A stretch of 64,000 bases of DNA from Syntrophomonadaceae bacterium (GTDB taxonomy: Bacteria > Bacillota > Syntrophomonadia > Syntrophomonadales > Syntrophomonadaceae): the NCBI GenBank assembly GCA_035412805.1, contig DAONVO010000002.1, positions 26 to 64,025 on the forward strand, written 5' to 3'. Of this stretch, positions 546 to 64,000 are shown piece after piece; within the stretch, counting starts at the first letter, position 1; every line of letters begins with the position of its first letter. The translations under genes and the position numbers were made by a program. The notes under the pieces were generated by a model, which saw nothing but the letters and a program-made list of their open reading frames with translations, was not told the origin of the DNA and searched no databases.

Positions 546-579
546 AACCCTCTTGTCGGTCCCTCACAGGAGGGATTTT

Positions 580-30687: not shown

Positions 30688-31536
30688 GTGCGAACTCTTT
30701 GGAAAGGTGCAGTCAGCTTCGGCCTGGTTAATATACCTATCAAAATGTATGTGGCTACTGAACGGAAAGACATCAAGTTCAACTACCTGCATAAAGAGTG
30801 CATGTCTCCCATTCAGTACCGCAAGTTTTGTCCCAATTGTAACCGGGAAATTGCCAGTGAAGAAATTGTGCGCGGCTATGAATACCAGAAAGGCAATTTT
30901 GTAGTTATTAATGAGGAGGATTTGGAACGCATTCCTTTGGAGTCCACCAAAACTATTGACATCCTGGACTTTGTGGATTTAGCCCAGGTTGATCCGATTT
31001 ACTTTGATAAGACCTATTACCTGGAACCATCCCAGGGCGGTGAAAAAGCTTACACCCTTCTGATCGAAGCCATGACGCAAACTAGTAAGGTGGCTATCGC
31101 CAAAGTTATAATTCGCTCCAAACAAACTTTGGCTGCTCTGAGAGTTAAGGACCAGGTTTTAATAATGGAAACCATTTTCTGGCCGGATGAAATCCGTTCC
31201 CCTTCTGCCCTGGACCTAGGAGTAGACCGGGTAAAACTCCATGACAATGAAATAAAAATGGCGGTCAGTCTCATCGAAAACCTATCTACCGACTTTGAAC
31301 CGGCCAAGTATCAGGATGAACATCGCCAGGCTTTGTGGGAACTAATTGAAAGCAAGATCGTAGGAAAAGAAGTCGTAGCTGCGGCTCCGGCAGCTGACCG
31401 CGGCAATGTGGTGGATTTGATGGAGGCTTTAAAAGCCAGCGTCAAACTGGCGGAAGAAAACCGCAATGCCCAGCAGGCTGATTCCGAACCACGCCAGGCT
31501 TCCCGGGGGCGCCGCAAAACCAAAACCGGGAGTTAG
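30688..31536 (+). CDS. ku: Ku protein (NHEJ DNA-end binding)
   Basis: 282 aa. The N-terminus RTLWKGAVSFGLVNIPIKMY is typical of bacterial Ku, and the C-terminal tail is basic. GTG start after GGGGGT. Confidence 0.92.
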   Translation: MRTLWKGAVSFGLVNIPIKMYVATERKDIKFNYLHKECMSPIQYRKFCPNCNREIASEEIVRGYEYQKGNFVVINEEDLERIPLESTKTIDILDFVDLAQVDPIYFDKTYYLEPSQGGEKAYTLLIEAMTQTSKVAIAKVIIRSKQTLAALRVKDQVLIMETIFWPDEIRSPSALDLGVDRVKLHDNEIKMAVSLIENLSTDFEPAKYQDEHRQALWELIESKIVGKEVVAAAPAADRGNVVDLMEALKASVKLAEENRNAQQADSEPRQASRGRRKTKTGS

Positions 31537-31541
31537 CATCC

Positions 31542-32474
31542 GTGGTTGAAGTACCTGGTTTGGCTTTAGTTGAGCCAATGATGCCTATACTGGTCAAAGA
31601 AATAATTGAAGGCCTCGAGTATGTTTACCAGGTTAAATGGGATGGGGTGCGTATGCTGGCTTACCTTTCCGCAGGAAGGGTAACCCTGGTAAACAGGCGT
31701 GGCCACCTGCGCACCGGGCAGTACCCGGAACTGCAGGAGTTGGCTTCCTTGTTGAAAGTGCCTGCAGCAATATTGGATGGAGAATTGGTGGTCCTAAAAA
31801 ATGGCAAACCCAGTTTTGCATCGATTTTGAAAAGGGATTTAAGCGGCCGGCAAGCTGATCACCTTAAGAAACTTTATCCTATCCACTATATGGTTTTCGA
31901 CATCCCCTTTGCCGGTCGGGACCTGCGTAATCTGTCTCTGATGGAACGCCAAAGAGTACTGGAGCAAACTCTGGTGAAAACCGAATGGGTACATACCGTG
32001 GAGAATTTCAGCGCCGGTCACAGCCTTTTCGAAGCCGTAAAAGCACAGGATATGGAAGGAATTGTTATTAAACGGTCTACTTCTCCATACATAAGCGGAA
32101 AAAAACATCGTGACTGGCTGAAAGTCAAATACCGGCGCACCCAATATTGCGTGATTGGCGGGTATACCTTAAACGGAACCACAGTAAATGCCCTCCTACT
32201 GGGAGTCTATCACAATCAGAATCTACTCTATGTGGGCAAAGCCGGTACCGGTTTAAAACAGGAGGAATGGAGCGTATTAACCCGGGAATTATCCCGTATG
32301 TCCATCTCTCATTCACCCTTTGTCAACAAACCTCCCGCTCGGGGATACTATTTTGTACACCCCCGGTTAACGGTTAAAATCGAATTTGCAGAATGGACGG
32401 AGAGCCTTACTTTGCGGTCCCCGGTCATAACCGGCTTCAGCAACAAGCCGGCTGAAGACTGCCGCTTAGAATGA
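31542..32474 (+). CDS. ATP-dependent DNA ligase (LigD ligase domain, stand-alone)
   Basis: 310 aa with the adenylation motif VKWDGVR (KxDG) and an OB-fold C-terminus. Confidence 0.9.
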   Translation: MVEVPGLALVEPMMPILVKEIIEGLEYVYQVKWDGVRMLAYLSAGRVTLVNRRGHLRTGQYPELQELASLLKVPAAILDGELVVLKNGKPSFASILKRDLSGRQADHLKKLYPIHYMVFDIPFAGRDLRNLSLMERQRVLEQTLVKTEWVHTVENFSAGHSLFEAVKAQDMEGIVIKRSTSPYISGKKHRDWLKVKYRRTQYCVIGGYTLNGTTVNALLLGVYHNQNLLYVGKAGTGLKQEEWSVLTRELSRMSISHSPFVNKPPARGYYFVHPRLTVKIEFAEWTESLTLRSPVITGFSNKPAEDCRLE

Positions 32475-50143: not shown

Positions 50144-51922
50144 TCAGGCCAGGCTGCGTTTATCTGCCAGCATAGATTTCTTTTCCGCTTTCACTATATT
50201 GATAAGGTTTTCCTTATTTAAGTCATCTACCAGATAGAGAACACCTTCGCCTTTTTCCGCTACTTTCTCCAGGTAATAGCGGTTGGATTCAACTCCGATA
50301 CAGATGAACCTTACCTTGCTTTGGGCAATGCGGCCCGCAGCCTCCAGCCCATCCATTTTAGCATCCAAAGTCCACAACGGAGCGTTGGGGACACCGTCAG
50401 TAATCAATACCAGCAAAGGATTGCGTACCCGGGTGTTTTTAATCAGGTCAAGGGCGGTCATAATTCCGTCAGCCAGGGGAGTCAGCCCGGCCGGGTTTAT
50501 GGTTGATAATCCTTTTCTAAGCTGGCGTTCATTGCGGGTAAAGGGTACCACCACTTTACTGCTGCGTTCTTGGAAGGTTACCACGGCTACCTTTTCTTTG
50601 CCGGTTAATAATAGATGCTCCGCCAAATAACAGGCCGCTTGACGCTTATCGCCGGCCATACTGCCGCTGGCATCAATTAAAAGGCAAACATCGATGGGAA
50701 TGTAGGTTTTCTTTTCATAGTAATGAAGATCATCTTTTTTTATCCGCAAGCCGGAATCCCCGCGCAGGTACGAGTTCTTTTTGGCCTGAACAATAGTTTC
50801 CGGAACCGCGAGATCACCGGACCAGTTTTTCTCCGGATTATTTTTCGTCTTATTGCGGTTAGTGAATTCTACCTGGCTTGACTTCTTCTCCGCTTTGCCC
50901 AGCTTGCGGAACCGGCTGGCGCCACCCGAAGGTACCCGGCGCATATTGCGGCGTATCTCGGTTTCCAGTTCGCACTTATGATTCATAACGAATTCCTTGA
51001 GGTTGATTCCCTTCCGAGTAAGAACCTTCCCCACTACGGTATCTTTGAGCAGCCCTAGTTCCTCCAGCTGCTCAATATAATGTTCTATATCTCCCCACTT
51101 TTTCTTCTGCTGGTCGATGCCCTTACGTTTGAAGATATTGGTGGAATAGCTATCCAGAAACTCCTCGATTTCATCTACCCCGCCAAATTTTTCGGCCAGT
51201 TTGAGAATCAACTGGTTGACATTCTCTTTGGCCGGAAGTTGCCGGGCATTCTGGCCTTTAAATTTCTTCCAGGGCAATTTAATATAACCGGCAAAGCTTT
51301 CTTCAGCTTGTTTCTGATTACCATGGATGATATTGCGCACCTTAGCCAGTTTGACCTCGGACTGCAATACTACTTCTTCCACCGCTTCAGCAATTACATA
51401 GACCAGATAGTATTCTTCCCGGCTCAGCCGGGCCAGAATATGCACATGATCAAAACCCTCTTCCCCCTCGATAAAGGGACGCATAATACCCTGGAATAGA
51501 TCATAAACTGTGCCCTTGCCTCCGTTGGTAGTAATAAAAATTCTATTGGCGTAGTCAGTTACCATACGAAAGCGCTCTTCTTCTGCATACTGTAGTTGAG
51601 GATTTTTTTCCAGGAAGTGTTTATCAAGTGCATAGAATATAGCCCGGGCAGTATCGCGAGGGTCAATGTCCCCCGGCTTATGATAAACATCGATATGCAC
51701 TATTTGATCAGCATCTACATAATCCAGATAGGTTTTCCCTGCATCGCGATTAAGGAGAATTTTGATCTGACCTTTGATGCGCTTTTCCGGCATACGGGCA
51801 TGCGCCTTACGGCTAACTACTGTACTTTCACCTAAACGCACACCCTGGTTCTGCCCGAAATACAAGCTTAAATAATTGCCTACTGAGGCAGCTTTATCTA
51901 TATTAGTCTTCTCACCAAGCAT
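50144..51922 (-). CDS. VWA-domain protein (C-terminal MIDAS-containing VWA, ChlD/NorD-like; novel N-terminal ~400 aa)
   Basis: MIDAS motif DASGSM (DxSxS) at LLIDASGSMAG, and a basic K/R-rich linker. ATG at 51922 follows the AAGGGGGGA RBS. Confidence 0.8.
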   Translation of the reverse strand: MLGEKTNIDKAASVGNYLSLYFGQNQGVRLGESTVVSRKAHARMPEKRIKGQIKILLNRDAGKTYLDYVDADQIVHIDVYHKPGDIDPRDTARAIFYALDKHFLEKNPQLQYAEEERFRMVTDYANRIFITTNGGKGTVYDLFQGIMRPFIEGEEGFDHVHILARLSREEYYLVYVIAEAVEEVVLQSEVKLAKVRNIIHGNQKQAEESFAGYIKLPWKKFKGQNARQLPAKENVNQLILKLAEKFGGVDEIEEFLDSYSTNIFKRKGIDQQKKKWGDIEHYIEQLEELGLLKDTVVGKVLTRKGINLKEFVMNHKCELETEIRRNMRRVPSGGASRFRKLGKAEKKSSQVEFTNRNKTKNNPEKNWSGDLAVPETIVQAKKNSYLRGDSGLRIKKDDLHYYEKKTYIPIDVCLLIDASGSMAGDKRQAACYLAEHLLLTGKEKVAVVTFQERSSKVVVPFTRNERQLRKGLSTINPAGLTPLADGIMTALDLIKNTRVRNPLLVLITDGVPNAPLWTLDAKMDGLEAAGRIAQSKVRFICIGVESNRYYLEKVAEKGEGVLYLVDDLNKENLINIVKAEKKSMLADKRSLA

Positions 51923-51949
51923 AGGAAGTCCCCCCTTAACCAAGGCCTA

Positions 51950-53152
51950 CTACATATCAGTAGGAGTTAAGGTCTTCTCTGTATTAATAAGTTCACCCCG
52001 ACTCATATCCTTCAGAGGGCGGGCATTTTGGGCAAAATACTCGGGCTCACTATCCTTTTGGGCTTTATTCTTGCGGCCGCGGAAAGTTAGGATTCCGTCC
52101 TTGGCAGATCTGGAATCAACGTCATTTATCATTTTGATTAAGGTGTCGCCATCTACTCTATGTTTCAATACCAGCGGTATCATATCTGTGACATCATTGA
52201 TTAAAACCTTGTCACGGCCACGAATTATACTGTGCAGGACCGCTCCCTGCTGCATAGCCTCAATAGCGCGAATACTTTCCAGATTGTGTTTAATATACAA
52301 ACGGGCAATAAAATTTCGCAGGAAGTCGGGTAGATCAGCTTGTTCATAAAGGCTGGCCCATTTGACTATGTTCTTGCGATAGACTTCATTGCCCTGGTCG
52401 TCACTTGATTCAACTTTATGCTTTTGTCTATAGGCATGGGAATTTTCTTTTAACATCTGAGCCAGGATATCCACGGAATCAGGTCGCCCCATGTAGCACA
52501 CCATGTCAAAACGATCTGACAATTGGCGCCGGATTTCTTCCAGGGGGCCGGGGTCCTCATCCGGGTTGGAAGCCGCCCAAACCGAGACATTAACTGGTAT
52601 TTCCACCACCGGCAATCCAGCTTCTTCGATCTGAATATGCCCGGGTTTGTTTCCCATAACATCCAGGAGAATATCGGTAATCTCTGGGGAGGTATCAGCC
52701 AACCTGTTAATCTCATCTATAAACAGAATTCCTCGATGAGCCTGAGGAATCAATCCTGGCAGCAGGCGGGCTTCTGGTTCATCTTTATCAGTTAGACGGC
52801 TTAAATCTATACTTCCAGCCACAGTGCCCACTTTGGCAGAATGAGAAATTTCCAGGAATGGCATGGGGATTTCCTCGGTGCCCAGTTCAGCCAATTCCTG
52901 GGCTGTCATGTTTTTATGCTGTGGGCAGTGGGGCTGTTGTGGATCACAATTGTAAATACATCCTTTAACTCTCGTTATATCGGGAAGAATCCCCCGAGCT
53001 GAACGCATTATAGTGGTCTTACCGGTTCCCCTCAGACCCTCGGCATGAATATGCAACGGTTCGCCTACCAGGGTGGAAACCACTGACATCAGCACTAATT
53101 CAAACAGAGACTCATTCCCCTCGTACCGTTCCAATTTACTGAAAGGTATCAT
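51950..53152 (-). CDS. ChlI/BchI-like AAA+ ATPase (Mg-chelatase I-subunit family)
   Basis: Walker A GLRGTGKTT, Walker B GILFIDEINRL and the SDRFD sensor/arginine region. ATG at 53152 follows the GAGGGGAG RBS; the track ORF extends to 53212. Confidence 0.8.
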   Translation of the reverse strand: MIPFSKLERYEGNESLFELVLMSVVSTLVGEPLHIHAEGLRGTGKTTIMRSARGILPDITRVKGCIYNCDPQQPHCPQHKNMTAQELAELGTEEIPMPFLEISHSAKVGTVAGSIDLSRLTDKDEPEARLLPGLIPQAHRGILFIDEINRLADTSPEITDILLDVMGNKPGHIQIEEAGLPVVEIPVNVSVWAASNPDEDPGPLEEIRRQLSDRFDMVCYMGRPDSVDILAQMLKENSHAYRQKHKVESSDDQGNEVYRKNIVKWASLYEQADLPDFLRNFIARLYIKHNLESIRAIEAMQQGAVLHSIIRGRDKVLINDVTDMIPLVLKHRVDGDTLIKMINDVDSRSAKDGILTFRGRKNKAQKDSEPEYFAQNARPLKDMSRGELINTEKTLTPTDM

Positions 53153-53228
53153 AATATCACTCCCCTCAGGCAAAGGTAGTTCCGTCCAACTATTGACTCT
53201 CCAATTCCCCAACTATGCTAGGATTTAC

Positions 53229-53273
53229 AATTTTCCCGGATTTCATCCCGTCCGATTATGCGCCGGGAAAATT
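53229..53273. promoter_or_regulatory. 11-bp inverted repeat in the leader of the ATPase-VWA operon
   Basis: AATTTTCCCGG-N23-CCGGGAAAATT. No U-tract follows, so it is not a terminator. Confidence 0.35.
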
Positions 53274-53602
53274 ACTTAATTAATAAAGCCTCCTTTCCTT
53301 ACTTCTTCACCGTTCTTTTTCCCCTAGATTAACCATACACTATTTTGTGATTTTTTTCTCTATAGGAACTGAGGTTGGTTGTAATCAGCGGATATTTAGC
53401 CGTAGCTTGCGACTTTAGGAACAAATTTAGGGCGTTAATTGAAGCTCTTAATAACAAAAAAGGGAGTCACCCTTAAAAAGGCCATCCCTCCCTTGGTTCA
53501 TTGGCACCAAACTATCATTTTTTTACCCTGCTATGATACTCATCCTGGGTATGATAGGAATGATTTTATGGCTAATTTGCTTCTTTTGCTCCCTAAATAT
53601 AC

Positions 53603-54394
53603 TTATTGTATGCTCATCTTCTGTCGCAACTGCTTAGCACGGGAACGACTGAGGATAATATTCTTATTACAGTTGTTGAGATGCAGAATGTATGATCCTT
53701 CGCCAAAGTTAACTATCTCTTTTATGTGGTTAAGGTTAACGATAAAAGCCTGATGAGCTCTGAAAAAACTGGTGTGATCCAGGCGTCCTTCCAACTCGTT
53801 AAGAGTATAGTTGCTCATGTAGCCGGTTCCATCCCGGGTGCATATGAGTACCTTCTTGCCCTGACTTTCACAGTAAACGATATCGTCCTGATTTAGCAAA
53901 ACTATTTTGCCCTTCTCTCTTATAGGCAGTTTATTGGAGAACACCTCGTAATTCTTATAGCGCTCCAGCATAAAATCTATGCGCTCTTTGAGGCGATCCC
54001 GCACTATTTCTTCTACATAGGACTTATGCACAATACGCTCTTTGGCTCTTTCAACGGTTTTTTCCAATCTTTTTTGCTCAATGGGCTTTACAATGAAGTC
54101 CAACGCTCCTAATTCATAGGCATCTACTGCCATTTCCCGGCGGGCGGTTACAAACGCAAATAACGGCGGATCTTTCATATCCTTCAGCTTACGTGCTGTT
54201 TCCAATCCACCCATTTCCGGCATAGCGATATCCAGCAATACCAGGTCCACTTTCTTTTCCTGGCAGAGCATCAAAGCCTCTAACCCATGCACGGCCTCTC
54301 CCACTATAGTCACATCTTTAATCTGTTCAACCACATAACGGAGCACAATCCGCTCCCGTTCATCATCATCTACAATTAAAACCTTTACCGACAT
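53603..54394 (-). CDS. LytTR-family response regulator (receiver + LytTR DNA-binding domain)
   Basis: Receiver domain VLIVDDDERER...DLVLLDIAMP and a C-terminal LytTR domain (FFRAHQAFIVNLNHIKEI). No histidine kinase gene is adjacent. Confidence 0.85.
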   Translation of the reverse strand: MSVKVLIVDDDERERIVLRYVVEQIKDVTIVGEAVHGLEALMLCQEKKVDLVLLDIAMPEMGGLETARKLKDMKDPPLFAFVTARREMAVDAYELGALDFIVKPIEQKRLEKTVERAKERIVHKSYVEEIVRDRLKERIDFMLERYKNYEVFSNKLPIREKGKIVLLNQDDIVYCESQGKKVLICTRDGTGYMSNYTLNELEGRLDHTSFFRAHQAFIVNLNHIKEIVNFGEGSYILHLNNCNKNIILSRSRAKQLRQKMSIQ

Positions 54395-54562
54395 TAATTC
54401 CCAACCTTTACAGTATGGTGTTAGCACTCTTGTTTTTTACTATATATTTTTTATAAATAGAAAACAACAGGTAAAACCCTCGCATCCCAATTATTCTACA
54501 TAAAATGACGACTTTCACCTAACCGGAAAATCTGGTAGGCTAAAGTTTAAGGAGGTAGATAA

Positions 54563-55438
54563 ATGCGTTACGAAGGAACCGTTTACAGGCCACCCAGTGA
54601 AGCAAACAGCCTGTTGATCCAAGCAACCATTGGGTGTCCTCACAACAAATGCACTTTTTGCCAGATGTACAAAGGTACCCGTTTTCGCCTGCGGCCGGTT
54701 CAGGAAATAAAAGAAGATTTAGCCATGGCCAGAGATTATTATGGTGATTTCATAGATGCGATTTTCTTTCCAGATGGTAATACCATCATTATGAAAACCG
54801 AGCAGCTGGAAGAAATCTTTCTATATGCCCGTGAGTTGTTTCCCCATCTGCAGCGTATCACAGTATATGGCTCAGCCCGGTTTGTAAACAAAAAAAGCCT
54901 CCAGGATTTGCAGCGCTTAAAAGATGCTGGCCTGACCCGAATTCATACCGGCATGGAAAGCGGTGATGATGTTACCCTGGAAAATATAAAAAAAGGTGTC
55001 ACTTCTGCCGAGATAATCGAAGCAGGGCTCAAATTAAAAGAAGCCGGCCTGCAAGTCAGCGAGTATTACCTGGTAGGCATAGGGGGTTTGGAAAGAACCT
55101 GTGAACACGCTTTGGAAAGTGCACGGGTTTTAAGTGCCATTAGCCCTGATTATATTCGCCTGCGTACTTATGTTCCGGTTCCTCATACTCCTTTGTATGA
55201 GGACTACCGTCAGGGCAAATTTAAGCTATTGTCTCCCCATCAGGCTTTGCGAGAAGTACGGCTTTTGATAGAGCACCTGCAATGTGATAACAGCATGGTA
55301 CTAAGCGATCACATCTCCAATTACTGGGATGTTCGGGGTATTATTCCCCATGATCGTGAAGAAATGTTAGCCGATCTTGATCAAGCTTTTCAGATAGATG
55401 AAAAAAGGTTTCGGCCTGCCGAAATCAGTCGCTTATAA
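54563..55438 (+). CDS. radical SAM protein of unknown function
   Basis: 291 aa. The cluster motif is GCPHNKCTFCQMY (Cys spacing x4/x2 as read), followed by a TIM-barrel-like pattern (GNT, GMESG). Confidence 0.75.
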   Translation: MRYEGTVYRPPSEANSLLIQATIGCPHNKCTFCQMYKGTRFRLRPVQEIKEDLAMARDYYGDFIDAIFFPDGNTIIMKTEQLEEIFLYARELFPHLQRITVYGSARFVNKKSLQDLQRLKDAGLTRIHTGMESGDDVTLENIKKGVTSAEIIEAGLKLKEAGLQVSEYYLVGIGGLERTCEHALESARVLSAISPDYIRLRTYVPVPHTPLYEDYRQGKFKLLSPHQALREVRLLIEHLQCDNSMVLSDHISNYWDVRGIIPHDREEMLADLDQAFQIDEKRFRPAEISRL

Positions 55439-55460
55439 TATGTCTCAACTCAGATATTGT

Positions 55461-55501
55461 TGTCTCCATTTAGAGACGATGGTTGTCTCTAAATGGAGAC
55501 A
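55461..55501. other. perfect 16-17-bp palindromic hairpin
   Basis: GTCTCCATTTAGAGAC-GATGGTT-GTCTCTAAATGGAGAC. Each arm is itself internally palindromic (GTCTC...GAGAC). Confidence 0.8.
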
Positions 55502-55628
55502 GCTTAATTTATCCACCTATCCAAATTCACTTTTTACCGGCTGTGTTAAAGATGTAGTTTATTGGCATGTAATTTGCATATTAATGTATGTGGGGGGACA
55601 TACACAAAAGGGGTGTATTACCAGATTA

Positions 55629-55667
55629 TAGGGGGCTGGATCGGCAATAATGGCCCCCTATTTTTTT
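55629..55667 (+). terminator. rho-independent terminator of the radical SAM gene
   Basis: TAGGGGGC-loop-GCCCCCTA followed by TTTTTTT. It overlaps the degV stop codon. Confidence 0.75.
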
Positions 55668-56511
55668 ATATGTTAACCATCAACCCTCCTTCACCAGCAT
55701 AGGTCCCAATGGTAGCACTCATATCACTAATCCATATGGTACCTGGATTATAACGTTCCGCAATTTGCTGGGCTAGCTGGCTAGCATCAGATAGGCAGTG
55801 AACATGAGTAATTCCTACTATGCGATTCTCCCAATCGGAAGTGATCCTCTCTCCTAGCATTTCAACCATGCGTTTGATGGCTCTGCTGCGTCCGCGTACC
55901 TTCTCATACAATTCCGGCTTTCCCTTCGCATTGTTACCCAAGAATATAGGTTTGATATGCAGCAAATCTCCGGCCAGTCCTTCAATTTTTTTTAATCTTC
56001 CTCCCTTTACCACGTTTTCCAGAGTATTAAGGGTAAAAATGGTTAGCTTTAGATTGAGGATATTCTCCAGCCTTTTGATGATGTCATCCATGCTCAACCC
56101 AGCTGCTGCCATCTGAGCGGCTCGAACAGCTATAATACCGGTCCCCAGGGACGCAGATAGAGTATCAAAAACTCTTACCTTGGTGTTGCATAGCATTTGC
56201 CGTGCCAGCTGGGCAATCTGGTATGTACTGCTAAGGCCAGAAGACAGGCTGATGAACAACACTTCTCCAGCCTCACGTAATCCTTTTTCAAAATGTTCTA
56301 TGAAGGTGCTGGGATCGGGGGCAGCGGTTTTAGGAAGAGTTTTTGATGCGGCCATCTTTTTTACAAAAAGCTCCGGGGACAACTCCCAACGGTCCAGATA
56401 GGTCTCTCCATCGGCAAAGGTTACCCTTAGGGGAATCATATCAATCTGGTACTGCTCCAATATCTCGTCAGGAAGATCGCAAGAAGTATCGGATAGTATT
56501 TTTATGGCCAT
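55666..56511 (-). CDS. DegV-family fatty-acid-binding protein
   Basis: 281 aa with the DegV pattern (ILSDTSCDLP...TAAPDPSTF...SLSSGLSSTYQ). Confidence 0.9.
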   Translation of the reverse strand: MAIKILSDTSCDLPDEILEQYQIDMIPLRVTFADGETYLDRWELSPELFVKKMAASKTLPKTAAPDPSTFIEHFEKGLREAGEVLFISLSSGLSSTYQIAQLARQMLCNTKVRVFDTLSASLGTGIIAVRAAQMAAAGLSMDDIIKRLENILNLKLTIFTLNTLENVVKGGRLKKIEGLAGDLLHIKPIFLGNNAKGKPELYEKVRGRSRAIKRMVEMLGERITSDWENRIVGITHVHCLSDASQLAQQIAERYNPGTIWISDMSATIGTYAGEGGLMVNI

Positions 56512-56602
56512 AACACTGCCTCCTTATATAGATACGTTGCCCCGGCGGGGCGACAAAGTCGTCAGCACCTACATTTTAGGGAGGCTAAAGCCTCCCCTAC
56601 AT

Positions 56603-57016
56603 CTAAGAGGGTGTTTTCATTGGCGGAACTATGTACACCTCATCACCCCTAAAGTCAAAATAATCGCTTAGTTTCCAGTAAATGCCCCGGCTGAGGCGGG
56701 TATCAGCCGGCCATCGATAGCTTATATAAGGGACATCCCCTTTGAAATACACCCGGGTTTCCTCTTTTAATTCGTATTCCTGCAAATCATGAAATACCAG
56801 CTTTATGGTACCGTCTTCGGTTTCTTGTATGCCTGTGGCATAAAAAGGCACATCCTCTACATCGATATCCGCCGTTTCATTGCCTAATACTATCCTGTAT
56901 GTGCCATCCTCTTTTCTGTCTATGTTAACCGCCAGCACATTAACAATATTGCGACGGAACATCTCCGCATTATTAAAATACCATTTACCATCCCTGCGGA
57001 TTACTATTTCACTCAC
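56603..57016 (-). CDS. DUF1285-like protein
   Basis: The I.RDGKWYF...DGTYRIVLGNETADIDVEDVPFYATG pattern is typical of DUF1285. GTG at 57016 follows the GGAGGAAGGGAGG RBS; the track ORF from 57091 starts at TTG without an RBS. Confidence 0.6.
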   Translation of the reverse strand: MSEIVIRRDGKWYFNNAEMFRRNIVNVLAVNIDRKEDGTYRIVLGNETADIDVEDVPFYATGIQETEDGTIKLVFHDLQEYELKEETRVYFKGDVPYISYRWPADTRLSRGIYWKLSDYFDFRGDEVYIVPPMKTPS

Positions 57017-57206
57017 TACTGGGACCTCCCTTCCTCCTTCATCATATTCTAATAAGGTTATCCAGCCGGGGCTATTTTTCCTGCTAATCAAGCAATAAAA
57101 AGGGCCCGGTCTTAATATTTACTTAATCGATGTTGTATTATGTCACCGGATAAGCAAATAATTTCAAGACCTGACCCTGTTGTTGATTCGTTAATAATTT
57201 AACCCT

Positions 57207-59882
57207 TTATAAGTTCTGGGCTGGTTTGAACTGGCGGGAGCGGTTATAGATTTGTTCAATATCCTGATCGGTGACCTCTCGCCCATTCATGACCAGTCCT
57301 GCCAGGCTGAACCCGTGTTTTTCCCCTAAGCTGCGCAAATAAGCCACAGTTTCCAGGGGCAATTTCGTGCCAATACTAAAATGCTGGTAGTTTCCTTCCA
57401 AAGCCAGCAGCACCGTTTCCGACAGGCAAGCCAGGCTGACTCCCTCCCGGTAGCCAAAATTGGGGCCAAAAGATATGTTGTCCGGATACTGTACCAGCCC
57501 GCCTTCCAGGACCAGAACATCATTTCTCTGCTCATATACTTCCGGAGAAACGTCGGCTGGCCGGGCTACATCGCAAACCACACAACCAGGACGCAAATGC
57601 CGTGAGTATATTAAATAATCAGGAGCGTTACTGGCTGCAACTATCAGGTCACACAGCGGCAGGGACTCATCCAGGCTGAGGCTGGTGGCAACCGGGATCT
57701 CCAGGTTTAAGTACTCGGCACATTTCTGTACCCAATCTGGAGAAAATTTGCCCTCATGATAATCTTTTAATAGTTGCTCAGACTGCAGGTCACGGCACTG
57801 AGACAATCTCTGCAGGACATTTTTCAGCCAGCCTGCCAGACCGCTTTCCACCCCTCTAGCCAATCTGTCCTTGGCATAGGAAAACAGATCATTATGCAGG
57901 GAGCGCAAACGGTTGCGGCTGCTGGTAGGATGCTGGGCATTGCCCACCAGAATTATATTGGCCACCTGTTCGGACAGCAGCAGAGCACAAGCCCGGCCAA
58001 TGGATCCGGTAGCACCTACCACCGCTCCTTGTGCCTGAGCAATATCTATATGCAGCTTCTCTGCTCCCCGGTACAGGGCTTCCATAGCCATAAGTACTGT
58101 GAAGCTGTTGCCGCTGGTTATGGCTACATTACGATCAGTCACTGAACGTCCTCCCCGGGTAACTACTGATGTTAAGGCACCCAAGCCTACTATACCGGCA
58201 CCCAGATCACGCCCCATATCTACTGCCTCACCTATCACTTGAACCACTTCTTCCCGGGGCAGCGACATTATCTGCCGGGCACCATATGGTACTCCGATCA
58301 GCCAGCCTTCAGCCGTGTCTCCACTGCGGGAACGAATGACCGGCATATGACAGACCATCCCTGCCTCTGCAGTCTGACACTGCCAATCCAAAAGCTGGTT
58401 CAGTTCGTTCCTGGTAAACCGCACAAAGGAAGGGTTGTTAGCAATAACATCCTCGGGGCCGGGATAATGGATTATAAAAGCAAATTTATGAGCAGGTTTT
58501 TCTCCTTCTTCCAATGAAGAGGCCTTGATTTTGCGGCTGGAAGACCGGTAATCAACTATATTTTCAGGGCGGGAACAGTCACCTATCAGGAAACGATACA
58601 GCAGAGCATAATCCCGGCAGGATAAAATCCGGCAAACCACTTCCAGGGCCTCCATAACCCGATCAATTTCTTCTATCGTGATAGTAAGGGTAGGCTCCAG
58701 CCGTAATGTCATAGGATTGTTTAAGAAAGGAGCCAGGCGAATGTGGTAAACGTTAAGGAGATATCCGGCAATCAAAGCCGTGAACCCGCTTCGATCACAG
58801 AGATAGGCCATATCAAAAGATCCGCAGTCATCCAAGTCATAGAACTCTATACCCACCATCAAGCCCTGGCCGCGGACCTCTTTAATTATGTCGGGATATG
58901 ACTCACCCAAGCGCAGACACCGTTCTAACAGGTATTCACCCTTGGCCGCTACCTCCCGGATAAGCTTCTGGTCATCTTTCAGCAGTTCATCCAGCACCGC
59001 GCTTCCAACCACACAGGAAAGATTGTTGTTGGCGAAGGTGGAACTGTGCAAAGAACCAAAATCATCATTATAAACCCGGGGCGAACTTATGCATACCCCC
59101 AGGGGAATCAGTCCTCCCCCCAGAGCTTTGGCCAGCAGAAGCACATCAGGTTCAATACCTTCATGCTCACAGGCAAACATTTTACCGGTGCGGCCTAAGC
59201 CGGTCTGTATCTCATCCAAAATAAAAACCACTCCATGCTGCCGGCAGAGACTTTGCACCTCTCGCAAATACCCCGGTCGGGCAGGTACTATTCCTCCCTC
59301 TCCCTGCACCGGTTCAACTATGAAGGCGGCTATATCGGAATTTTTTCCCAAAACCTCTGCCAGAGCCTTCGCATCATTAAAAGGAATACGCATAAAACCA
59401 GGTACGGGGGCTCCAAAGGGAGTTTGATATACTTCTCTTCCGGTAGCAGACAATGCTCCCAAGGTCTTGCCATGAAAGCTGCGCTCGGTAGAAACAATCG
59501 TCATCCGTCCGGTAGCAGAACGTGCCAGCTTTATAGCTGCTTCTACCGCTTCCGTGCCACTTTGGCAAAAGGTACAATAGCATAAATCTCCCGGAGTAAT
59601 TTGGGCCAGCTTATTAGCCAGACGCAGTGCCTCACCCGGCAAGGAAGGCTGCACCAAACTGGGGATTTGCTGGGTTCTTACTCTATCCAGAGCCTGCCAT
59701 ATAACCTCAGGATTATAACCAAAAGGTACTGCTCCATACTGAGCAATAAAATCCAAATAACGCTTGCCCTCTCTATCAATTAAATAACTGCCCTGACCCG
59801 ATACATAGTCTTTGTCCAGGTAAAAAGTCTGTAAAAGTTTGGCCAGAGTTGGGTTTAACAGGTCTTTACGCAGTGTAGTCAT
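57207..59882 (-). CDS. bifunctional fusion: class-III (PLP) aminotransferase + acyl-ACP-reductase (AAR)-like NAD(P)-dependent reductase
   Basis: About 891 aa. The N-terminal ~440 aa carry class-III aminotransferase motifs (GTEAVEAAIKLAR, DEIQTGLGRTG, LLAKALGGG). The C-terminal ~430 aa have the Rossmann motif VVGATGSIG and a conserved Cys in ACLSETVLLALEG, collinear with cyanobacterial AAR. ATG at 59882 follows GGAGG. Confidence 0.8.
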   Translation of the reverse strand: MTTLRKDLLNPTLAKLLQTFYLDKDYVSGQGSYLIDREGKRYLDFIAQYGAVPFGYNPEVIWQALDRVRTQQIPSLVQPSLPGEALRLANKLAQITPGDLCYCTFCQSGTEAVEAAIKLARSATGRMTIVSTERSFHGKTLGALSATGREVYQTPFGAPVPGFMRIPFNDAKALAEVLGKNSDIAAFIVEPVQGEGGIVPARPGYLREVQSLCRQHGVVFILDEIQTGLGRTGKMFACEHEGIEPDVLLLAKALGGGLIPLGVCISSPRVYNDDFGSLHSSTFANNNLSCVVGSAVLDELLKDDQKLIREVAAKGEYLLERCLRLGESYPDIIKEVRGQGLMVGIEFYDLDDCGSFDMAYLCDRSGFTALIAGYLLNVYHIRLAPFLNNPMTLRLEPTLTITIEEIDRVMEALEVVCRILSCRDYALLYRFLIGDCSRPENIVDYRSSSRKIKASSLEEGEKPAHKFAFIIHYPGPEDVIANNPSFVRFTRNELNQLLDWQCQTAEAGMVCHMPVIRSRSGDTAEGWLIGVPYGARQIMSLPREEVVQVIGEAVDMGRDLGAGIVGLGALTSVVTRGGRSVTDRNVAITSGNSFTVLMAMEALYRGAEKLHIDIAQAQGAVVGATGSIGRACALLLSEQVANIILVGNAQHPTSSRNRLRSLHNDLFSYAKDRLARGVESGLAGWLKNVLQRLSQCRDLQSEQLLKDYHEGKFSPDWVQKCAEYLNLEIPVATSLSLDESLPLCDLIVAASNAPDYLIYSRHLRPGCVVCDVARPADVSPEVYEQRNDVLVLEGGLVQYPDNISFGPNFGYREGVSLACLSETVLLALEGNYQHFSIGTKLPLETVAYLRSLGEKHGFSLAGLVMNGREVTDQDIEQIYNRSRQFKPAQNL

Positions 59883-60096
59883 ATATATCCTCCTTGTTGT
59901 GCACATATTTGTGCATCATCCCGAACTATAACCATTGTATAGATAATTGCCTGCTTGTCAATGTGGCATACCCATTTTGGCTTGTAAGATTCTCATCCCC
60001 TAAGTAATCAACTTGCATATCGTACATATTTAACGTGGATTAGGGGAAAATTAGTTTAATACTGATTGGGCTTGATGAAAAGGAGGTGCACCAAGA

Positions 60097-60240
60097 TTGG
60101 CTGATAATGAATTAAAGACAGAAGATGGTTATGATATTGGTACCTTTCACTTCTTAAAGACTGGATGGTGGATATTCCACATAGTAGTGATCGCTGCCGT
60201 TTTCTATCTGGGATATTTATTTGGTGGTAATGTTTTTTAA
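60097..60240 (+). CDS. 47-aa single-TM protein, below the ORF-track cutoff
   Basis: AGGAGGTG, then 8 nt, then TTG. The peptide reads (M)ADNELKTEDGYDIGTFHFLKTGWWIFHIVVIAAVFYLGYLFGGNVF and is followed by a hairpin. Confidence 0.45.
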   Translation: MADNELKTEDGYDIGTFHFLKTGWWIFHIVVIAAVFYLGYLFGGNVF

Positions 60241-60248
60241 ATTTATAA

Positions 60249-60271
60249 AGGGGCTCTTGAAGTGAGCCCCT
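60249..60271. terminator. bidirectional terminator hairpin
   Basis: AGGGGCTC-TTGAAGT-GAGCCCCT. On the minus strand it is followed by TTATAAATTT. Confidence 0.6.
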
Positions 60272-60281
60272 GGTGGTCTTA

Positions 60282-61118
60282 CTACCATTCCGGAGGTAGT
60301 TTTTTAAGTTGAGCCAGGTTAAATACCGGACCGTCCAAACATATATACTCACTGCCGATGTTGCAGCGTCCGCATTTGCCGATACCGCATTTCATGCGCA
60401 TTTCCAGAGTGGTGATCACCTGTTCATCACTGTAGCCCATCTTTTCTAAAGACTGTAAACAAAACTTTATCATAATTGGCGGCCCGCAGATCACGGCTAT
60501 GGTACCCTCGGGATTGGGATTGAGTTCTTCCAGATAGGCTGGCACAAATCCCACATGACCGTCCCATCCTTCTTCAGGATTATCGATAGTAACGTAAACC
60601 TGGGTGTCTTTCTGCTGAGGCCACTTCTCGAACAATTCATCCTTGAAACATAAATCCGCAGCACTGCGGCTCCCGTATAGGATAGTTATTTTGCCAAAGT
60701 CGTCCCGGTGTTTAAAGCAATATTTGATAAAAGAACGTAAGGGTGCCAGTCCAATACCGCCGGCAATAAACAGCATATCCTTGCCCTTACACTCTTCTAC
60801 CGGAAAGCCATTGCCATAAGGGCCGCGCACTCCTAGTTTCTGGCCTACTTCAATCCTGTGCAGTTCATCAGTCATTAACCCGGTACGTTTGATGGCGAAT
60901 TCCAGGTGATCATTCTCTTCCTGCCAGGAAACTGAAAACATGCCTTCCCCGACTGGAATCAGAGAAACCATGGCTAACTGGCCTGGCATAACATTGAAAG
61001 GTACGCCGCCTTTCTCACTGCGAACATAAAAATTCTTTACGTCAGGGGTCTCATCAATGATTTTTACTACTTCGACGATTCCCGGTACCAGTGGGTTTTC
61101 ACAGCTGCAATTATGCAC
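60282..61118 (-). CDS. FAD/NAD(P)-binding oxidoreductase with C-terminal [2Fe-2S] (FlxA / AsrB / sulfhydrogenase-gamma-like)
   Basis: 278 aa, ferredoxin-reductase fold (GGIGLAP) and a C-terminal Cys cluster CGIGKCGRCNIG. Confidence 0.85.
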   Translation of the reverse strand: MHNCSCENPLVPGIVEVVKIIDETPDVKNFYVRSEKGGVPFNVMPGQLAMVSLIPVGEGMFSVSWQEENDHLEFAIKRTGLMTDELHRIEVGQKLGVRGPYGNGFPVEECKGKDMLFIAGGIGLAPLRSFIKYCFKHRDDFGKITILYGSRSAADLCFKDELFEKWPQQKDTQVYVTIDNPEEGWDGHVGFVPAYLEELNPNPEGTIAVICGPPIMIKFCLQSLEKMGYSDEQVITTLEMRMKCGIGKCGRCNIGSEYICLDGPVFNLAQLKKLPPEW

Positions 61119-62127
61119 CGGTTTCCGCCTCCTTTACCGTATCAATAATCTTGATAATACTTACCCCACCCGGGCAAACCACAATACAGCGGCCGCAACC
61201 CGTGCAAAGTGGTCTGCCATATCGCTCCGTAAAAAATTGGAGCTTGTGCAGGAAACGGTTGCGGAATCTCTCCTTAGCTGCTTCTCGGGGATTATGGCCT
61301 CCGGCCATTTGGGTGTATTCACGGTACATGCAGGAATCCCAGCAACGGAAGCGATAGCCTTCATCGCCCCAGGCTTTAACCTGAATGTCAAAACAATAGC
61401 AGGTAGGGCATAGATAAGTGCATATCCCGCAAGTCTGACAGGGCTCGGAAAACTTTTCCCACATGGGATCTTCAAACATGTCTTTAAGCTTTTCTGCAAC
61501 ACCTTCGTAATTGACCTTACGCAGGAACGGCTTTAAGGGGAACAGTTCCACCTCTTGCTCTTCTAATAAGTCTTCAATCTGTTTGGTTACCGCTTCGCCT
61601 TTTTCAGTTTTAACATCCCAAACATAACCGCCGTTTACTTCGCGCATGATAATATCCGCTGCTTCAGAATCAGTCGGGTTTACTCCCATGGATTCGCAAA
61701 AGCAGTTGGTCCCTGGATTATAGCAGGCATTGGCTATGATAGTAGTCTTATCCCGCCGCGCTTTATAGAACTGGTCTACATAGCCCTTGGTCAGAAATAC
61801 ATCGTCTAAATGTTCAATTCCCCTTACATCACAGGAACGAATGCCCATGATGATTTTGGGAGTCATCTCTTCAGCTTCCACATCAATCTTTATTTCCTGA
61901 CCTTCCTGGCTGAAACTGTACATCTTTTCAGTCTGCGGCAAAATTACATGTTTGGGGGACTGGTAAACATTCAAAATATCGAACATAAGGTCGTCATAAC
62001 CTTCATCATAGGTATTCCAGGAAAAGAAACCCGTCTGCTGTCCCCGCAACATGGGTACATACACATCGGCTTGCTGAGCCAGCCGGTCCAGAACCTGTTC
62101 TATTTTGCTCATTTTAAGCACCTTCAT
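61111..62127 (-). CDS. 4Fe-4S protein (FlxB / AsrA / HydB-like)
   Basis: 338 aa with the motifs CQTCGICTYLCPTCYC and CTGCGRCIVVCP. Confidence 0.85.
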   Translation of the reverse strand: MKVLKMSKIEQVLDRLAQQADVYVPMLRGQQTGFFSWNTYDEGYDDLMFDILNVYQSPKHVILPQTEKMYSFSQEGQEIKIDVEAEEMTPKIIMGIRSCDVRGIEHLDDVFLTKGYVDQFYKARRDKTTIIANACYNPGTNCFCESMGVNPTDSEAADIIMREVNGGYVWDVKTEKGEAVTKQIEDLLEEQEVELFPLKPFLRKVNYEGVAEKLKDMFEDPMWEKFSEPCQTCGICTYLCPTCYCFDIQVKAWGDEGYRFRCWDSCMYREYTQMAGGHNPREAAKERFRNRFLHKLQFFTERYGRPLCTGCGRCIVVCPGGVSIIKIIDTVKEAETGA

Positions 62128-62138
62128 AATCTCACCCC

Positions 62139-63044
62139 TTACAGGAAATCATCCGGATCATTTTCCTTATAAACGCTTAATGGTGGTTTATTCCCCTCAA
62201 CATATTCCATGCCCGCTTCATAAGGACCAAAGAACTCGTTTACATCTTTGATCAGCTTACGATTGATCAGCATTAACGGAATATTAACCGGACATACCCG
62301 TTCACATTCGCCACATTCAACACATCTTCCTGCCATATGGGAAGCACGTACCAGATGATACATAAAGTTATCGCTGATACTGGTCTCTCGTCCTACCCAC
62401 TGGGGGCGGGTTTCATCAAAAATACAGGTCCGGCAGTTGCAGGCTACGCAGGCCTGACGGCAGGCGTAACAGCGAATACACCTGGACAACATATCTTCGA
62501 AGAACCTATAACGCTCATCGGCTGACATCTGTTCTATTTCTGCAATACGGGCAAAGCGGTCAGTCTCTCCCCGAATGGGCTGTTCTTCTCCCACCATTTC
62601 ATCATATATAACTGGATTAGGCTGGCGACAATCCAAGCATTTCGCTGCCAGACCATCCTCCGGAGTCTGTATCCTTTCAAAACCGGAGTGCTGTTTCATG
62701 GCCCGGAGCGGATCCTTAACTCCGTCGCAGGCAACTCCAATGATATATAAACGATCCCTCTTAATTTGGTTGTCTTCCAGGAGTCTCACTATCCCCCGGG
62801 AATCGCAGCCTTTGACCACAATAGCAATTTTCTCTTTACCATCCCGGTACCGCAGCAGACTGTTGGACAGGTTATGGATAGAGTATTCGTCACAAACTAT
62901 GCGACCGACCTCGTCAACGGTCCGGGCAATAAAGGGGATGGTCTGGTATTCATGATCGCCTTTTTCCCAGGCTATAACCATATCTACTTGGCCATTTTCC
63001 AACAGCCTGGCGGCAATTTCACGAATCTCTTGCGTGTAGTTCAT
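62139..63044 (-). CDS. iron-sulfur subunit (FlxC-like)
   Basis: 301 aa with the motifs CIRCYACRQACVACNC and CVECGECERVCPVNIP. Confidence 0.75.
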   Translation of the reverse strand: MNYTQEIREIAARLLENGQVDMVIAWEKGDHEYQTIPFIARTVDEVGRIVCDEYSIHNLSNSLLRYRDGKEKIAIVVKGCDSRGIVRLLEDNQIKRDRLYIIGVACDGVKDPLRAMKQHSGFERIQTPEDGLAAKCLDCRQPNPVIYDEMVGEEQPIRGETDRFARIAEIEQMSADERYRFFEDMLSRCIRCYACRQACVACNCRTCIFDETRPQWVGRETSISDNFMYHLVRASHMAGRCVECGECERVCPVNIPLMLINRKLIKDVNEFFGPYEAGMEYVEGNKPPLSVYKENDPDDFL

Positions 63045-63478
63045 TATTTTGCCCCCTTCAGCTTATGGTTAGGACCAAGATTATTCACATCAGCCACCAA
63101 CTTTTCCATGGTCTCCTGGAACTTGATTCCTTCCGAACCAGAAATCCAGGCAGTCTGATATCTCTCCGGCTCAATGCCGACATACTCCAGCAAACTCTTC
63201 ATAACCGTATGACGGCGCCGTTGATAGTAATTGCCACTACCATAGTGGCACTCGCCCGGGTGTCATCCCGATAGCAGAACGCCGTCTGCCCCCCGGTTAA
63301 AGGCTCTTAAAACCAACAGGGGGTCCATCCGCCCGGAACAAGGAGTACGAATAATGCGAACATCGGCTGGATAGTGCAAATGGTTCGATCCCGCCAGGTC
63401 CGCAGCGGCGTACGTGCACCAGTTGCAGGCAAATACTAGGACTTTAGGCTTCCAGGCCTTTTCCTGTTCTATAGACAC
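63044..63478 (-). CDS. MvhD/FlxD-like protein containing selenocysteine (in-frame UGA at 63265-63263)
   Basis: The track ORF stops at ...GADGVLLSG-TGA. The same frame continues HPGECHYGSGNYYQRR...ISGSEGIKF to TAA at 63046-63044. UGA occupies the position of the first Cys of the conserved GCHxGDCHY motif of MvhD. Confidence 0.85.
63232..63250 (-). other. SECIS-like hairpin 12 nt downstream of the UGA
   Basis: On the minus strand, UGCCACUA-UGG-UAGUGGCA forms an 8-bp stem with a G/U-containing apical loop. Confidence 0.6.
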
Positions 63479-64000
63479 AGTGCATCCACCTCCGCTACCA
63501 GTTGTTCATTAGTAAATCCCTTCAGGTTCAAAGCGGTCGTGCGGCAGGCCGGTAAACAGGCTCCGCAACCCTGGCACAGGCTGCTGTTCACTGCAGCTAC
63601 CTGGCGGGTAAAGGGTCCATGATGACCGCGGTCTTTGATTTCCACCAGTGATAGTGCTTTGTAAGGACAAATCGGCACACACAGACCGCATCCGGAACAT
63701 TTACTGGTATCTACCTCAGTAATCATAGGTTCGGTAGCCAGCCTATCTTTGGAGAACAGACCACAAACCTTAACTGCAGCAGCACTGGCTTGCGCTACTG
63801 TATCCGGAATGTCCTTGGGTCCCTGACAGGCTCCGGCTACATAAACTCCAGCGGTGAAAGTCTCTACCGGCTGCAGTTTGGGATGGGCTTCCTGGAAGAA
63901 GCCATCTTTATCGGTGGAGAAGCCGATGGTTTTAGCCAGTTCCTGGGCGCCTTCAGAAGGTACCATAGCGGTTGCCAAAACCACCATATCCACTTCTACT
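63469..64000 (-). CDS. hdrA: heterodisulfide reductase subunit A (HdrA), C-terminal part; gene continues beyond the window
   Basis: GVYVAGACQGPKDIPDTVAQASAAA plus a C-terminal 2x[4Fe-4S] ferredoxin domain (CSGCGLCVPICP, CQGCGACLPACR). The reading frame is open to the window edge. Confidence 0.88.
   Translation of the reverse strand, partial: VEVDMVVLATAMVPSEGAQELAKTIGFSTDKDGFFQEAHPKLQPVETFTAGVYVAGACQGPKDIPDTVAQASAAAVKVCGLFSKDRLATEPMITEVDTSKCSGCGLCVPICPYKALSLVEIKDRGHHGPFTRQVAAVNSSLCQGCGACLPACRTTALNLKGFTNEQLVAEVDALCL

Follow-up and report, generated by a model that had tools for sequence, protein, structure and literature searches.

A class-III aminotransferase fused to an acyl-ACP-reductase-like domain throughout the Syntrophomonadaceae is a probable TamH-type enzyme for converting acyl thioesters into primary amines

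What is the function of a protein that joins an aminotransferase to a domain resembling the acyl-ACP reductase (AAR; ACP, acyl carrier protein) of cyanobacterial alkane biosynthesis? The question is raised by a 64,000-nucleotide stretch of contig DAONVO010000002.1 from a Syntrophomonadaceae bacterium (assembly GCA_035412805.1), hereafter called the window, in which one minus-strand open reading frame (ORF) at 57207-59882 is listed and translated as a single 891-residue polypeptide. A sequence-only reading of this DNA had proposed that the protein fuses a class-III aminotransferase (TA) to an AAR-like thioester reductase (TR) and turns acyl thioesters into amines. That there is one fused protein of about this length is borne out alike by the ORF, by its Shine-Dalgarno sequence and by the lengths of its homologues, and it is probably a bifunctional enzyme of the type represented by TamH of Pseudoalteromonas tunicata (PtTamH), which would take an acyl thioester via the aldehyde to a primary amine.

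The N-terminal half matches the family PF00202 (Aminotran_3) over residues 26-414 with 305 bits (E 9e-91; gathering threshold 30.5 bits) and covers profile positions 13-400 of 403, so that it was rightly described beforehand as a complete class-III aminotransferase, and the residues expected of such an enzyme are all present. In an alignment of 40 homologues, which are 63-88% identical to the query and which define all statements on conservation below, K252, D223, E224, Q226 and R394 of this domain are invariant. The predicted Schiff-base lysine Lys252 lies in a segment, LLAKALGGG, that aligns with LMLSKSLSGG of PigE, while Asp223 and Gln226 are taken by us to be contacts of the pyridoxal phosphate (PLP) cofactor, as is generally the case in fold-type I class-III aminotransferases, and Arg394 presumably holds the amino donor or acceptor by its alpha-carboxylate, a role that we assign from what is known of the fold class and by aligning the domain with PigE. 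The nearest solved structures are the TA domain of PigE (4PPM, 273 bits) and the putrescine aminotransferase YgjG (E ~6e-87, 296 bits, 37% identity). The full-length AlphaFold2 model is confident (pLDDT 85.5, pTM 0.81), and Foldseek searches with it returned aminotransferases only, in agreement with PigE (37% identity) and YgjG as the nearest relatives (target-normalised TM-score ~0.83). The pTM value furthermore suggests a defined packing of the TA and TR domains in the model, which is consistent with a hand-over of the aldehyde.

No Pfam domain scores above threshold in the C-terminal half, and its identity emerges from curated profiles and from structures. Searched with phmmer against the PDB, the C-terminal 459 residues match PigE's N-terminal domain (E 1e-27) and the AAR known as SeAAR (6JZQ, E 3e-14), and the profile TIGR04058 (AcACP_reductase) matches the same half with E 1e-20 and 74.1 bits, as does, for this half alone, the NCBIfam PigE model with E 3e-51. 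The AAR-family membership that had been suggested for the C-terminal ~430 residues is thus supported by the profile searches, with the catalytic Cys aligned, and the structural model agrees. As the full-length search had given only aminotransferases, the TR domain (residues 460-891) was modelled apart (pLDDT 85, pTM 0.85), and the best Foldseek match of this model is AAR 6JZY (E 4e-19, target-normalised TM-score 0.74); the domain thus has the three-subdomain fold of AAR, an equivalent of its Cys294 and an aligned GATG loop. An assignment to a shikimate or amino-acid dehydrogenase devoid of the Cys, which the sequence-only reading had named as the outcome that would speak against it, did not arise, since Cys819 is invariant and since Trp, Leu and Glu dehydrogenases, MtdA and shikimate dehydrogenase match the TR model only with E of at least 1.5e-5 and TM-scores of at most 0.41. 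The profile matches rejected as sub-threshold are Shikimate_DH (PF01488; 15.3-17.5 bits over ~59 Rossmann residues, cut-off 24.3 bits), THF_DHG_CYH_C or FolD (13-15 bits, a partial Rossmann match below cut-off) and HemA (TIGR01035; E 0.21, 10.5 bits).

The second-best Foldseek matches of the TR model are the carmabin TAD structures 9E4S and 9E4X (E 2e-16), which likewise have an invariant Cys and a Thr-Thr-Gly motif, and it may be asked whether the fusion carries out a TAD-like amidation or some other non-reductive off-loading, with the TA domain handling nitrogen in another way. This seems very improbable, since the similarity to TAD is marginal at the sequence level (E 0.014 with phmmer against the PDB, versus 3e-14 for AAR and 1e-27 for PigE), since TADs end modules of nonribosomal peptide synthetases (NRPS) and the TAD paper mentions no aminotransferase, whereas the TR domain of the fusion follows an aminotransferase and is accompanied by no C, A or PCP domains, and since TAD activity is undemonstrated (bioRxiv 10.1101/2024.10.28.620694), whereas reductive amination by a TA-TR protein has been demonstrated for PtTamH.

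The notion of a thioester reductase is furthermore in agreement with the individual residues of the domain. Cys819, the predicted acyl-enzyme nucleophile, aligns with Cys294 of SeAAR and with the Cys of PigE, and around it LAC819LSETVLLALEG of the fusion pairs with FAC294FAEAMLLEFEG of AAR. All fusion motifs quoted in the sequence-only reading, ACLSETVLLALEG included, are found in the translation, and the AAR motifs that it had quoted (GGFTSII, TTGNTHTA, VVGATGDIG and CFAEAMLLEFEG) are indeed present in 6JZQ and aligned to them, the HMMER alignment pairing, in the order AAR/fusion, AVVGATGDIG with AVVGATGSIG, FTTGNTHTA with ITSGNSFTV and GGFTSII with GALTSVV. Invariant residues include G623, A624, G626, S627, I628 and G629 of the dinucleotide-binding loop, A749, S751 and N752, which correspond to the 222-VASM-225 loop of AAR, and H472 of the N-terminal FxFIIH motif, which corresponds to AAR His7, together with F467, F469, Y473, F486 and W500 of the N-terminal subdomain. 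In SeAAR the acyl chain is found covalently bound to Cys294 with C4 of NADPH 3.1 A from the acyl C1, and the ADP moiety lies sandwiched between GATGDIG and VASM (PMC7089970). In TAD a Thr-Thr-Gly junction motif adjoins the catalytic Cys (bioRxiv 10.1101/2024.10.28.620694), and TSGNSFTV is the equivalent motif of the fusion. The TR domain also contains a helical insertion, which finds no aligned counterpart in 4PPM or 6JZQ in the HMMER comparison and which is modelled as four helices (H652-675, 681-696, 699-709 and 715-724). A gap of more than 60 residues is found at its position in 70 of the 80 TA-TR representatives described below and in some TR-only proteins. The insertion could serve as the place where the acyl donor docks.

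What the analysis itself shows is which domains are present, how they are predicted to fold and which catalytic residues never vary; the chemistry we infer by homology to PtTamH, PigE and SeAAR. The TR domain would move an acyl group from a phosphopantetheine thioester, either acyl-ACP or acyl-CoA, onto Cys819, and a hydride from NAD(P)H would reduce this acyl-enzyme thioester, setting free an aldehyde. The TA domain, carrying PLP on Lys252, would then transaminate the aldehyde to a primary amine at the expense of an alpha-amino-acid donor held by Arg394, for which L-Glu is the likeliest candidate and ornithine or arginine are possible, and the fusion of the two domains would prevent the escape of the reactive aldehyde. 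The path from thioester via aldehyde to amine proposed in the sequence-only reading is accordingly reasonable and matches the chemistry of PtTamH, and for the same reason it is not new (PMC9594044). Of the possible substrates, a fatty acyl thioester is the likeliest, drawn from the cell's common pool of acyl-CoA or of acyl-ACP from fatty acid synthesis and giving an alkylamine, because no carrier or adenylating partner is found nearby and because the host is a beta-oxidising syntroph. This is the weakest part of the proposal, and within the probable TamH-like reductive amination perhaps half of the weight falls on a plain fatty acyl substrate. A long-chain acyl-ACP or acyl-CoA as substrate and an alkylamine or lipid head group as product are unproven, the neighbourhood of the gene not specifying the substrate.

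Several observations weigh against the reading of the fusion as a TamH-type enzyme acting on fatty acyl thioesters, or at least against its details. The chemistry of the fusion and its Syntrophomonadaceae homologues is predicted from relatives, and both curated models that match it do so far below their equivalog cut-offs, the PigE model NF053554 with 567.7 bits for the whole protein in three separate stretches (cut-off 850 bits) and TIGR04058 with 74.1 bits (cut-off 449.7 bits). Judged by these scores the fusion appears to be neither a PigE nor an AAR equivalog, and substrate specificity cannot therefore be transferred from either. The arginines that form the 2'-phosphate pocket of AAR are not kept, R189 being replaced by N649 and R314 by T839 (with K840 adjacent), and R193 falls where the insertion begins and has no alignable counterpart; a preference for NADH or NADPH cannot be called from the sequence. 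PtTamH, furthermore, refuses C12-CoA and requires its cognate acyl-ACP (PMC9594044), and when the window's ORFs with at least 150-180 residues were scanned with Pfam, neither an AMP-binding nor a PP-binding protein nor any gene of a pyrrole pathway came to light, an ACP of ~80-100 residues falling below the sizes scanned. Finally, Tyr247 of AAR, a tunnel residue that acyl binding requires, aligns with the invariant Arg774, and the acyl site could perhaps be differently shaped or more polar.

The replacement of this hydrophobic-tunnel residue by arginine is also the structural argument for the same chemistry acting on a short or polar acyl thioester, such as a succinyl-, glutaryl-, malonyl-, 3-oxo- or amino-acyl-CoA or -ACP, with an omega-amino acid, a diamine, a polyamine-type compound or, as in PigE, a cyclising amino-ketone as product. 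After PigE, the relatives of the TA domain are YgjG and ArgD/LysJ/ornithine aminotransferases, which act on polar substrates, PigE itself uses a keto-acyl thioester and not a plain fatty acyl group, and the housekeeping neighbours and family-wide conservation of the gene resemble those of a primary-metabolism gene. The only assayed enzyme of TA-TR order, PtTamH, however yields C7-C14 alkylamines, conserved hydrophobic and aromatic residues abound in the N-terminal subdomain of the TR domain, and no polyamine or amino-acid pathway gene adjoins the fusion, and we therefore hold a short or polar substrate to be unlikely, if the most serious of the alternatives to a fatty acyl group.

The fusion is, by sequence comparison, a family-wide gene of the Syntrophomonadaceae that lies outside any biosynthetic cluster. 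Among the at least 120 matches listed, identity to the fusion is 62-100% along practically the whole protein, and all those named to genus or family belong to Syntrophomonas, Thermosyntropha, Syntrophocurvum or Syntrophomonadaceae, whereas outside the clade the next relative falls to 41% identity. Public contigs that encode the identical protein number 13, among them contigs of a Syntrophomonadaceae metagenome-assembled genome and of anaerobic-digester metagenomes, and a literature search for the fusion gene in Syntrophomonas papers found none. This setting bears on the direction of the reaction. The family is specialised in acyl-CoA beta-oxidation, as is well established from its physiology, tandem thiolase genes are present in the window, and the fusion is found without a biosynthetic cluster or a dedicated carrier or adenylation partner, all of which would suit a catabolic enzyme that oxidises an amine to the aldehyde and this, with reduction of NAD(P)+, to acyl-Cys819, from where acyl-CoA would enter beta-oxidation; transamination is reversible, and oxidation of a Cys thiohemiacetal is textbook chemistry in CoA-acylating aldehyde dehydrogenases. 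Such a reversal is nevertheless quite improbable, since the characterised members of the AAR family, SeAAR, PtTamH and PigE, are all reductive, no amine transporter or regulator adjoins the fusion, and growth of Syntrophomonadaceae on alkylamines was not found in the literature searched. The more general notion that a cluster-free TA-TR enzyme shared by a whole family draws on the acyl-CoA/ACP pool to make an undescribed primary amine, or conversely feeds amines into beta-oxidation, is put forward tentatively and is rather doubtful in this form.

The features of the locus are collected in Table 1. For the start of the TA-TR fusion, the ATG at 59882 is preferred because AGGAGG is found 7 nt upstream and because the closest homologues are about 890-893 residues long; an upstream ATG at 59906, which would give 899 residues, was rejected on the same grounds. 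The promoter-like site, ~50 nt upstream of the ATG, was recognised only by its match to a pattern, and sites of this kind are no more numerous in the whole region than in shuffled sequence. A search of 53000-61000 with Rfam at permissive E-values gave two chance miRNA matches only, with no riboswitch or T-box before the fusion gene.

Table 1. Features of the TA-TR fusion gene and its immediate surroundings (positions in the window)
Feature	Residues	Position	Strand	Basis or remark
TA-TR fusion CDS, complete	1-891	57207..59882	-	891 aa + stop codon 57207-57209; ORF list, translation
N-terminal class-III (omega) aminotransferase domain	1-432	58587..59882	-	PF00202
DEIQTGLGRTG motif	223-233	59184..59216	-	D223, E224, Q226 invariant (40 members)
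Lys252 codon, predicted Schiff-base lysine in LLAKALGGG (249-257)	252	59127..59129	-	invariant
Inter-domain linker	433-464	58491..58586	-	between Pfam TA envelope and first TR strand, AF2 model
C-terminal AAR-like thioester-reductase domain	465-891	57210..58490	-	phmmer, TIGR04058, Foldseek
LGALTSVV motif	567-574			TR domain
TSGNSFTV motif	589-596	58095..58118	-	equivalent of AAR TTGNTHTA; T589, S590, G591, N592, S593 invariant
Dinucleotide-binding loop VVGATGSIG	621-629	57996..58022	-	aligns with AAR 162-GATGDIG-168
Helical insertion, ~70-80 aa	~650-730	57693..57935	-	after Rossmann strand beta-2; absent from SeAAR, PigE
Cys819 codon, predicted acyl-enzyme nucleophile in ACLSETVLLALEG (818-830)	819	57426..57428	-	invariant
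Shine-Dalgarno AGGAGG		59889..59894	-	7 nt before ATG 59882; read from sequence
Sigma-70-type promoter-like site TTGACA-16 nt-TACAAT		59934..59961	-	consensus scan, 11/12 matches
DUF1285 gene directly downstream		56603..57091	-	PF06938; probable start GTG 57016
DegV/FakB-like fatty-acid-binding protein gene		55666..56511	-	PF02645 E 1.5e-75, TIGR00762

The genes around the fusion are housekeeping and redox genes and do not form a biosynthetic cluster. An Hdr/Flx-type redox cluster with AsrA/AsrB-like and FrhB-like Fe-S/FAD subunits lies upstream. On the downstream side the fusion is followed by DUF1285, the DegV/FakB-like gene, a radical-SAM gene of divergent sequence, a response regulator of the LytTR type, the AAA and VWA pair that resembles chelatases, GerM and a racemase, and farther off are genes for glycine cleavage, RNase PH, fumarase, AlaRS and ClpB. 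NCBIfam gives the neighbours generic or sub-threshold names only (chelatase-like AAA and VWA, LytR-type regulator, unclassified radical SAM, AsrA/AsrB-like). When 14 proteins of the window were searched with tblastn against 19 genome loci, the whole ~17-kb block was found to be syntenic across the family, Syntrophocurvum included, and adjacency therefore gives little information on function or pathway, which likewise tells against reading a substrate from the locus. Of the Syntrophomonadaceae loci, all 18 that are informative have DUF1285 downstream of the fusion; it is likewise found there in Syntrophocurvum and next to P0121 (58% identical), whereas the DegV gene adjoins the fusion in only 7 of the 18. 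DUF1285 is thus the only clade-wide neighbour of the fusion and a candidate for a functional link that is as yet unproven, and the paper on its structure speculatively proposes that its ligand is of a nucleotide type and that it acts in signalling (PMC2954208). The helical insertion and DUF1285 might substitute for a dedicated carrier protein.

Some further features of the window deserve mention in their own right. The Hdr/Flx-type cluster (60282-63993, minus strand, running past the window end; L001:2635-9601) lies directly upstream of the fusion, comprises AsrB-like FAD/NAD, AsrA-like Fer4_22, FrhB-like, MvhD/FlpD, HdrA-like and CCG-domain HdrB-like genes. Its synteny extends over the family, and its product is probably a complex for electron confurcation or bifurcation of the kind typical of syntrophs. 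The pair of AAA+ (ChlI/MoxR-like) and VWA (ChlD-like C-terminus) genes at 50144-53212 on the minus strand scores far below the cobalto- and magnesium-chelatase cut-offs and is kept downstream of the fusion-DUF1285 block family-wide. An inverted repeat with a near-perfect 20-bp stem at 55459-55503, between the convergent radical-SAM (plus strand) and DegV (minus strand) genes, is probably a bidirectional terminator. The tandem thiolase genes (27624-28904 and 29266-30546, plus strand) encode 426-residue proteins that are 100% identical, with DNA 99.6% identical over 1,361 bp, so that a beta-oxidation gene of this syntrophic fatty-acid oxidiser was either duplicated in tandem very recently or doubled artificially in the assembly. 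The gene pair for Ku and a LigD-like ATP-dependent DNA ligase at 30688-32474 on the plus strand indicates bacterial non-homologous end joining, and two minus-strand ORFs, 24056-25228 (390 residues) and 26003-27355 (450 residues), flank a PRC-barrel gene (25250-25981) and have no Pfam match at E <= 1e-6.

Beyond the family, TA and TR appear from their distribution to behave as a mobile two-domain module. A HMMER scan with the TR domain of 1.84 billion cluster representatives at 50% identity gave 2,725 clusters at E <= 1e-3, of which 556 at E <= 1e-30, and among the best 150 representatives 80 have the TA-TR order, 70 have TR alone and none has the order of PigE. TA-TR forms are found in Bacillota, Proteobacteria and many uncultured lineages, the named carriers including Brevibacillus (P0123, 41% identity over the TR domain) and Massilia. 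Pfam furthermore reveals larger assemblies, namely A-ACP-TA-TR (P0135), TA-TR-A (P0136), GNAT/FemAB-TA-TR (P0152) and A-AONS-A-ACP-TA-TR (P0249), and the stand-alone TA-TR gene of P0144 overlaps a PP-binding gene; carrier-bound thioesters are supported as the general substrate class of the module by these A/ACP fusions and by this overlap. ORFs of 123-136 residues beside distant TA-TR genes are unrelated to DUF1285, save at P0121, which belongs to the same clade. In three unrelated lineages a homologous ~300-residue protein follows TA-TR (Brevibacillus L025:10730-11620, L031:5153-6088 and L033:7916-8863; pairwise E 1e-67 to 1e-86), with two ExxH motifs and a ferritin-like or di-iron look, and two of the three loci also contain a homologous ~125-residue protein (E 1e-14) and an APC permease (E 1e-35). 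On sequence grounds TA-TR, the di-iron-like protein, the small protein and the permease look like a conserved cassette echoing the pairing of AAR with the di-iron oxygenase ADO, and this cassette is absent from the anaerobic Syntrophomonadaceae.

The claim of the sequence-only reading that no enzyme of this architecture has been characterised does not hold, since PtTamH has the same TA-TR order and PigE the reversed one, and since the fusion is common in databases. Reductive amination of acyl thioesters by fusions of TA with an AAR-like domain is established enzymology, and the novelty of the present protein is its occurrence throughout a family of syntrophic fatty-acid-degrading anaerobes, the enzyme type being already characterised. 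The module is far more widespread than the pigment pathways in which it has been studied, and the Syntrophomonadaceae, which are syntrophic fatty-acid oxidisers with a key role in anaerobic digesters, have kept the fusion without a cluster or carrier partner. If it does make fatty amines from the acyl-CoA/ACP pool, these would represent a class of lipids or metabolites so far overlooked in these organisms, and a carrier-independent biocatalyst from fatty acid to amine would be possible, unlike PtTamH. Whether it made an amine from this pool or ran in reverse, an enzyme type known so far only from pyrrole-pigment pathways would for the first time have a role in primary metabolism.

Compared with known systems, the TR domain shares with AAR (6JZQ/6JZY) the GATGxIG, VAS(M/N), T(T/S)GN and N-terminal (F)xxIxH motifs and the catalytic Cys at an identity of 20-21%. 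AAR, however, is a stand-alone protein of 341 residues that gives its aldehyde to ADO, it lacks the helical insertion, and its NADPH-pocket arginines and Tyr247 are not kept in the fusion; Pfam scans of the ORFs revealed no ADO or ferritin-like gene in the window. SeAAR accepts acyl-CoA and acyl-ACP alike (PMC7089970). The TAD domains of the carmabin and vatiamide NRPS (9E4S-9E56) likewise have an AAR-like two-lobed fold, an invariant Cys near the nicotinamide and carrier-bound thioesters as substrates, but are NAD-specific and C-terminal in their modules (bioRxiv 10.1101/2024.10.28.620694). A more remote analogy is offered by GluTR-GSAM (HemA-HemL), in which a Cys-dependent acyl reductase passes an aldehyde to a PLP enzyme of class-III fold and the substrate is Glu-tRNA. 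It was invoked as a structural analogy by the authors of the PigE study (PMC8341465), and no HemL model is found among the best 25 of 72 NCBIfam matches to the fusion.

PigE (NF053554, PDB 4PPM) is the best-scoring characterised relative of both halves of the fusion. In the MAP branch of Serratia prodigiosin biosynthesis (Couturier et al. 2021) it reduces a synthetic thioester and transaminates the product, its substrate is a keto-acyl thioester with ornithine or arginine as proposed donors, and AAR served as the model for its N-terminal domain (PMC8341465). The two proteins share the Cys with its flanking CxxET(V/I)(L/V)LALE motif and the logic of reduction followed by transamination, but the order in PigE is TR-TA, the reverse of that in the fusion, and the PigE profile accordingly matches in permuted form (positions 385-728 on residues 7-348 and 212-359 on residues ~737-884). 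PigE moreover lacks the ~70-residue helical insertion and has AIVGYPGSIC where the fusion has GATGSIG, and the fusion is not accompanied by a pig cluster.

The counterpart in architecture is PtTamH from the tambjamine YP1 pathway (UniProt A4C5V8; Richardson et al., ACS Catal 2022), in which a class-III TA at residues 1-500 is followed by a connector of ~50 residues and by an AAR-like TR domain at 547-941 with G707xxG710xxG713 and Cys887 (PMC9594044). The purified enzyme transaminates C7-C14 aldehydes with L-Glu as donor, and together with the A-ACP protein TamA it carries C12 acid via C12-ACP and C12 aldehyde to dodecylamine with NADH and L-Glu, the aldehyde being detected when Glu is omitted (PMC9594044). 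TamH is dimeric and NADH-specific, has 941 residues versus 891 in the fusion, and its gene stands beside that of its dedicated partner TamA in a pyrrole cluster of 19 genes, whereas the fusion has no such cluster within 64 kb, a TamA-like partner and MBC genes being absent from the ORFs scanned there, and belongs to a strict anaerobe of another phylum. In domain organisation the two nevertheless agree, both having the order TA, linker of ~30-50 residues and TR with GxxGxxG and a catalytic Cys. By published residue numbers only, TR start, G-loop and Cys fall at 465, 623 and 819 in the fusion and at 547, 707 and 887 in PtTamH, so that G-loop and Cys are 196 and 180 residues apart respectively, versus 132 in AAR, and the TR start precedes the G-loop by ~158-160 residues in both TamH and the fusion.

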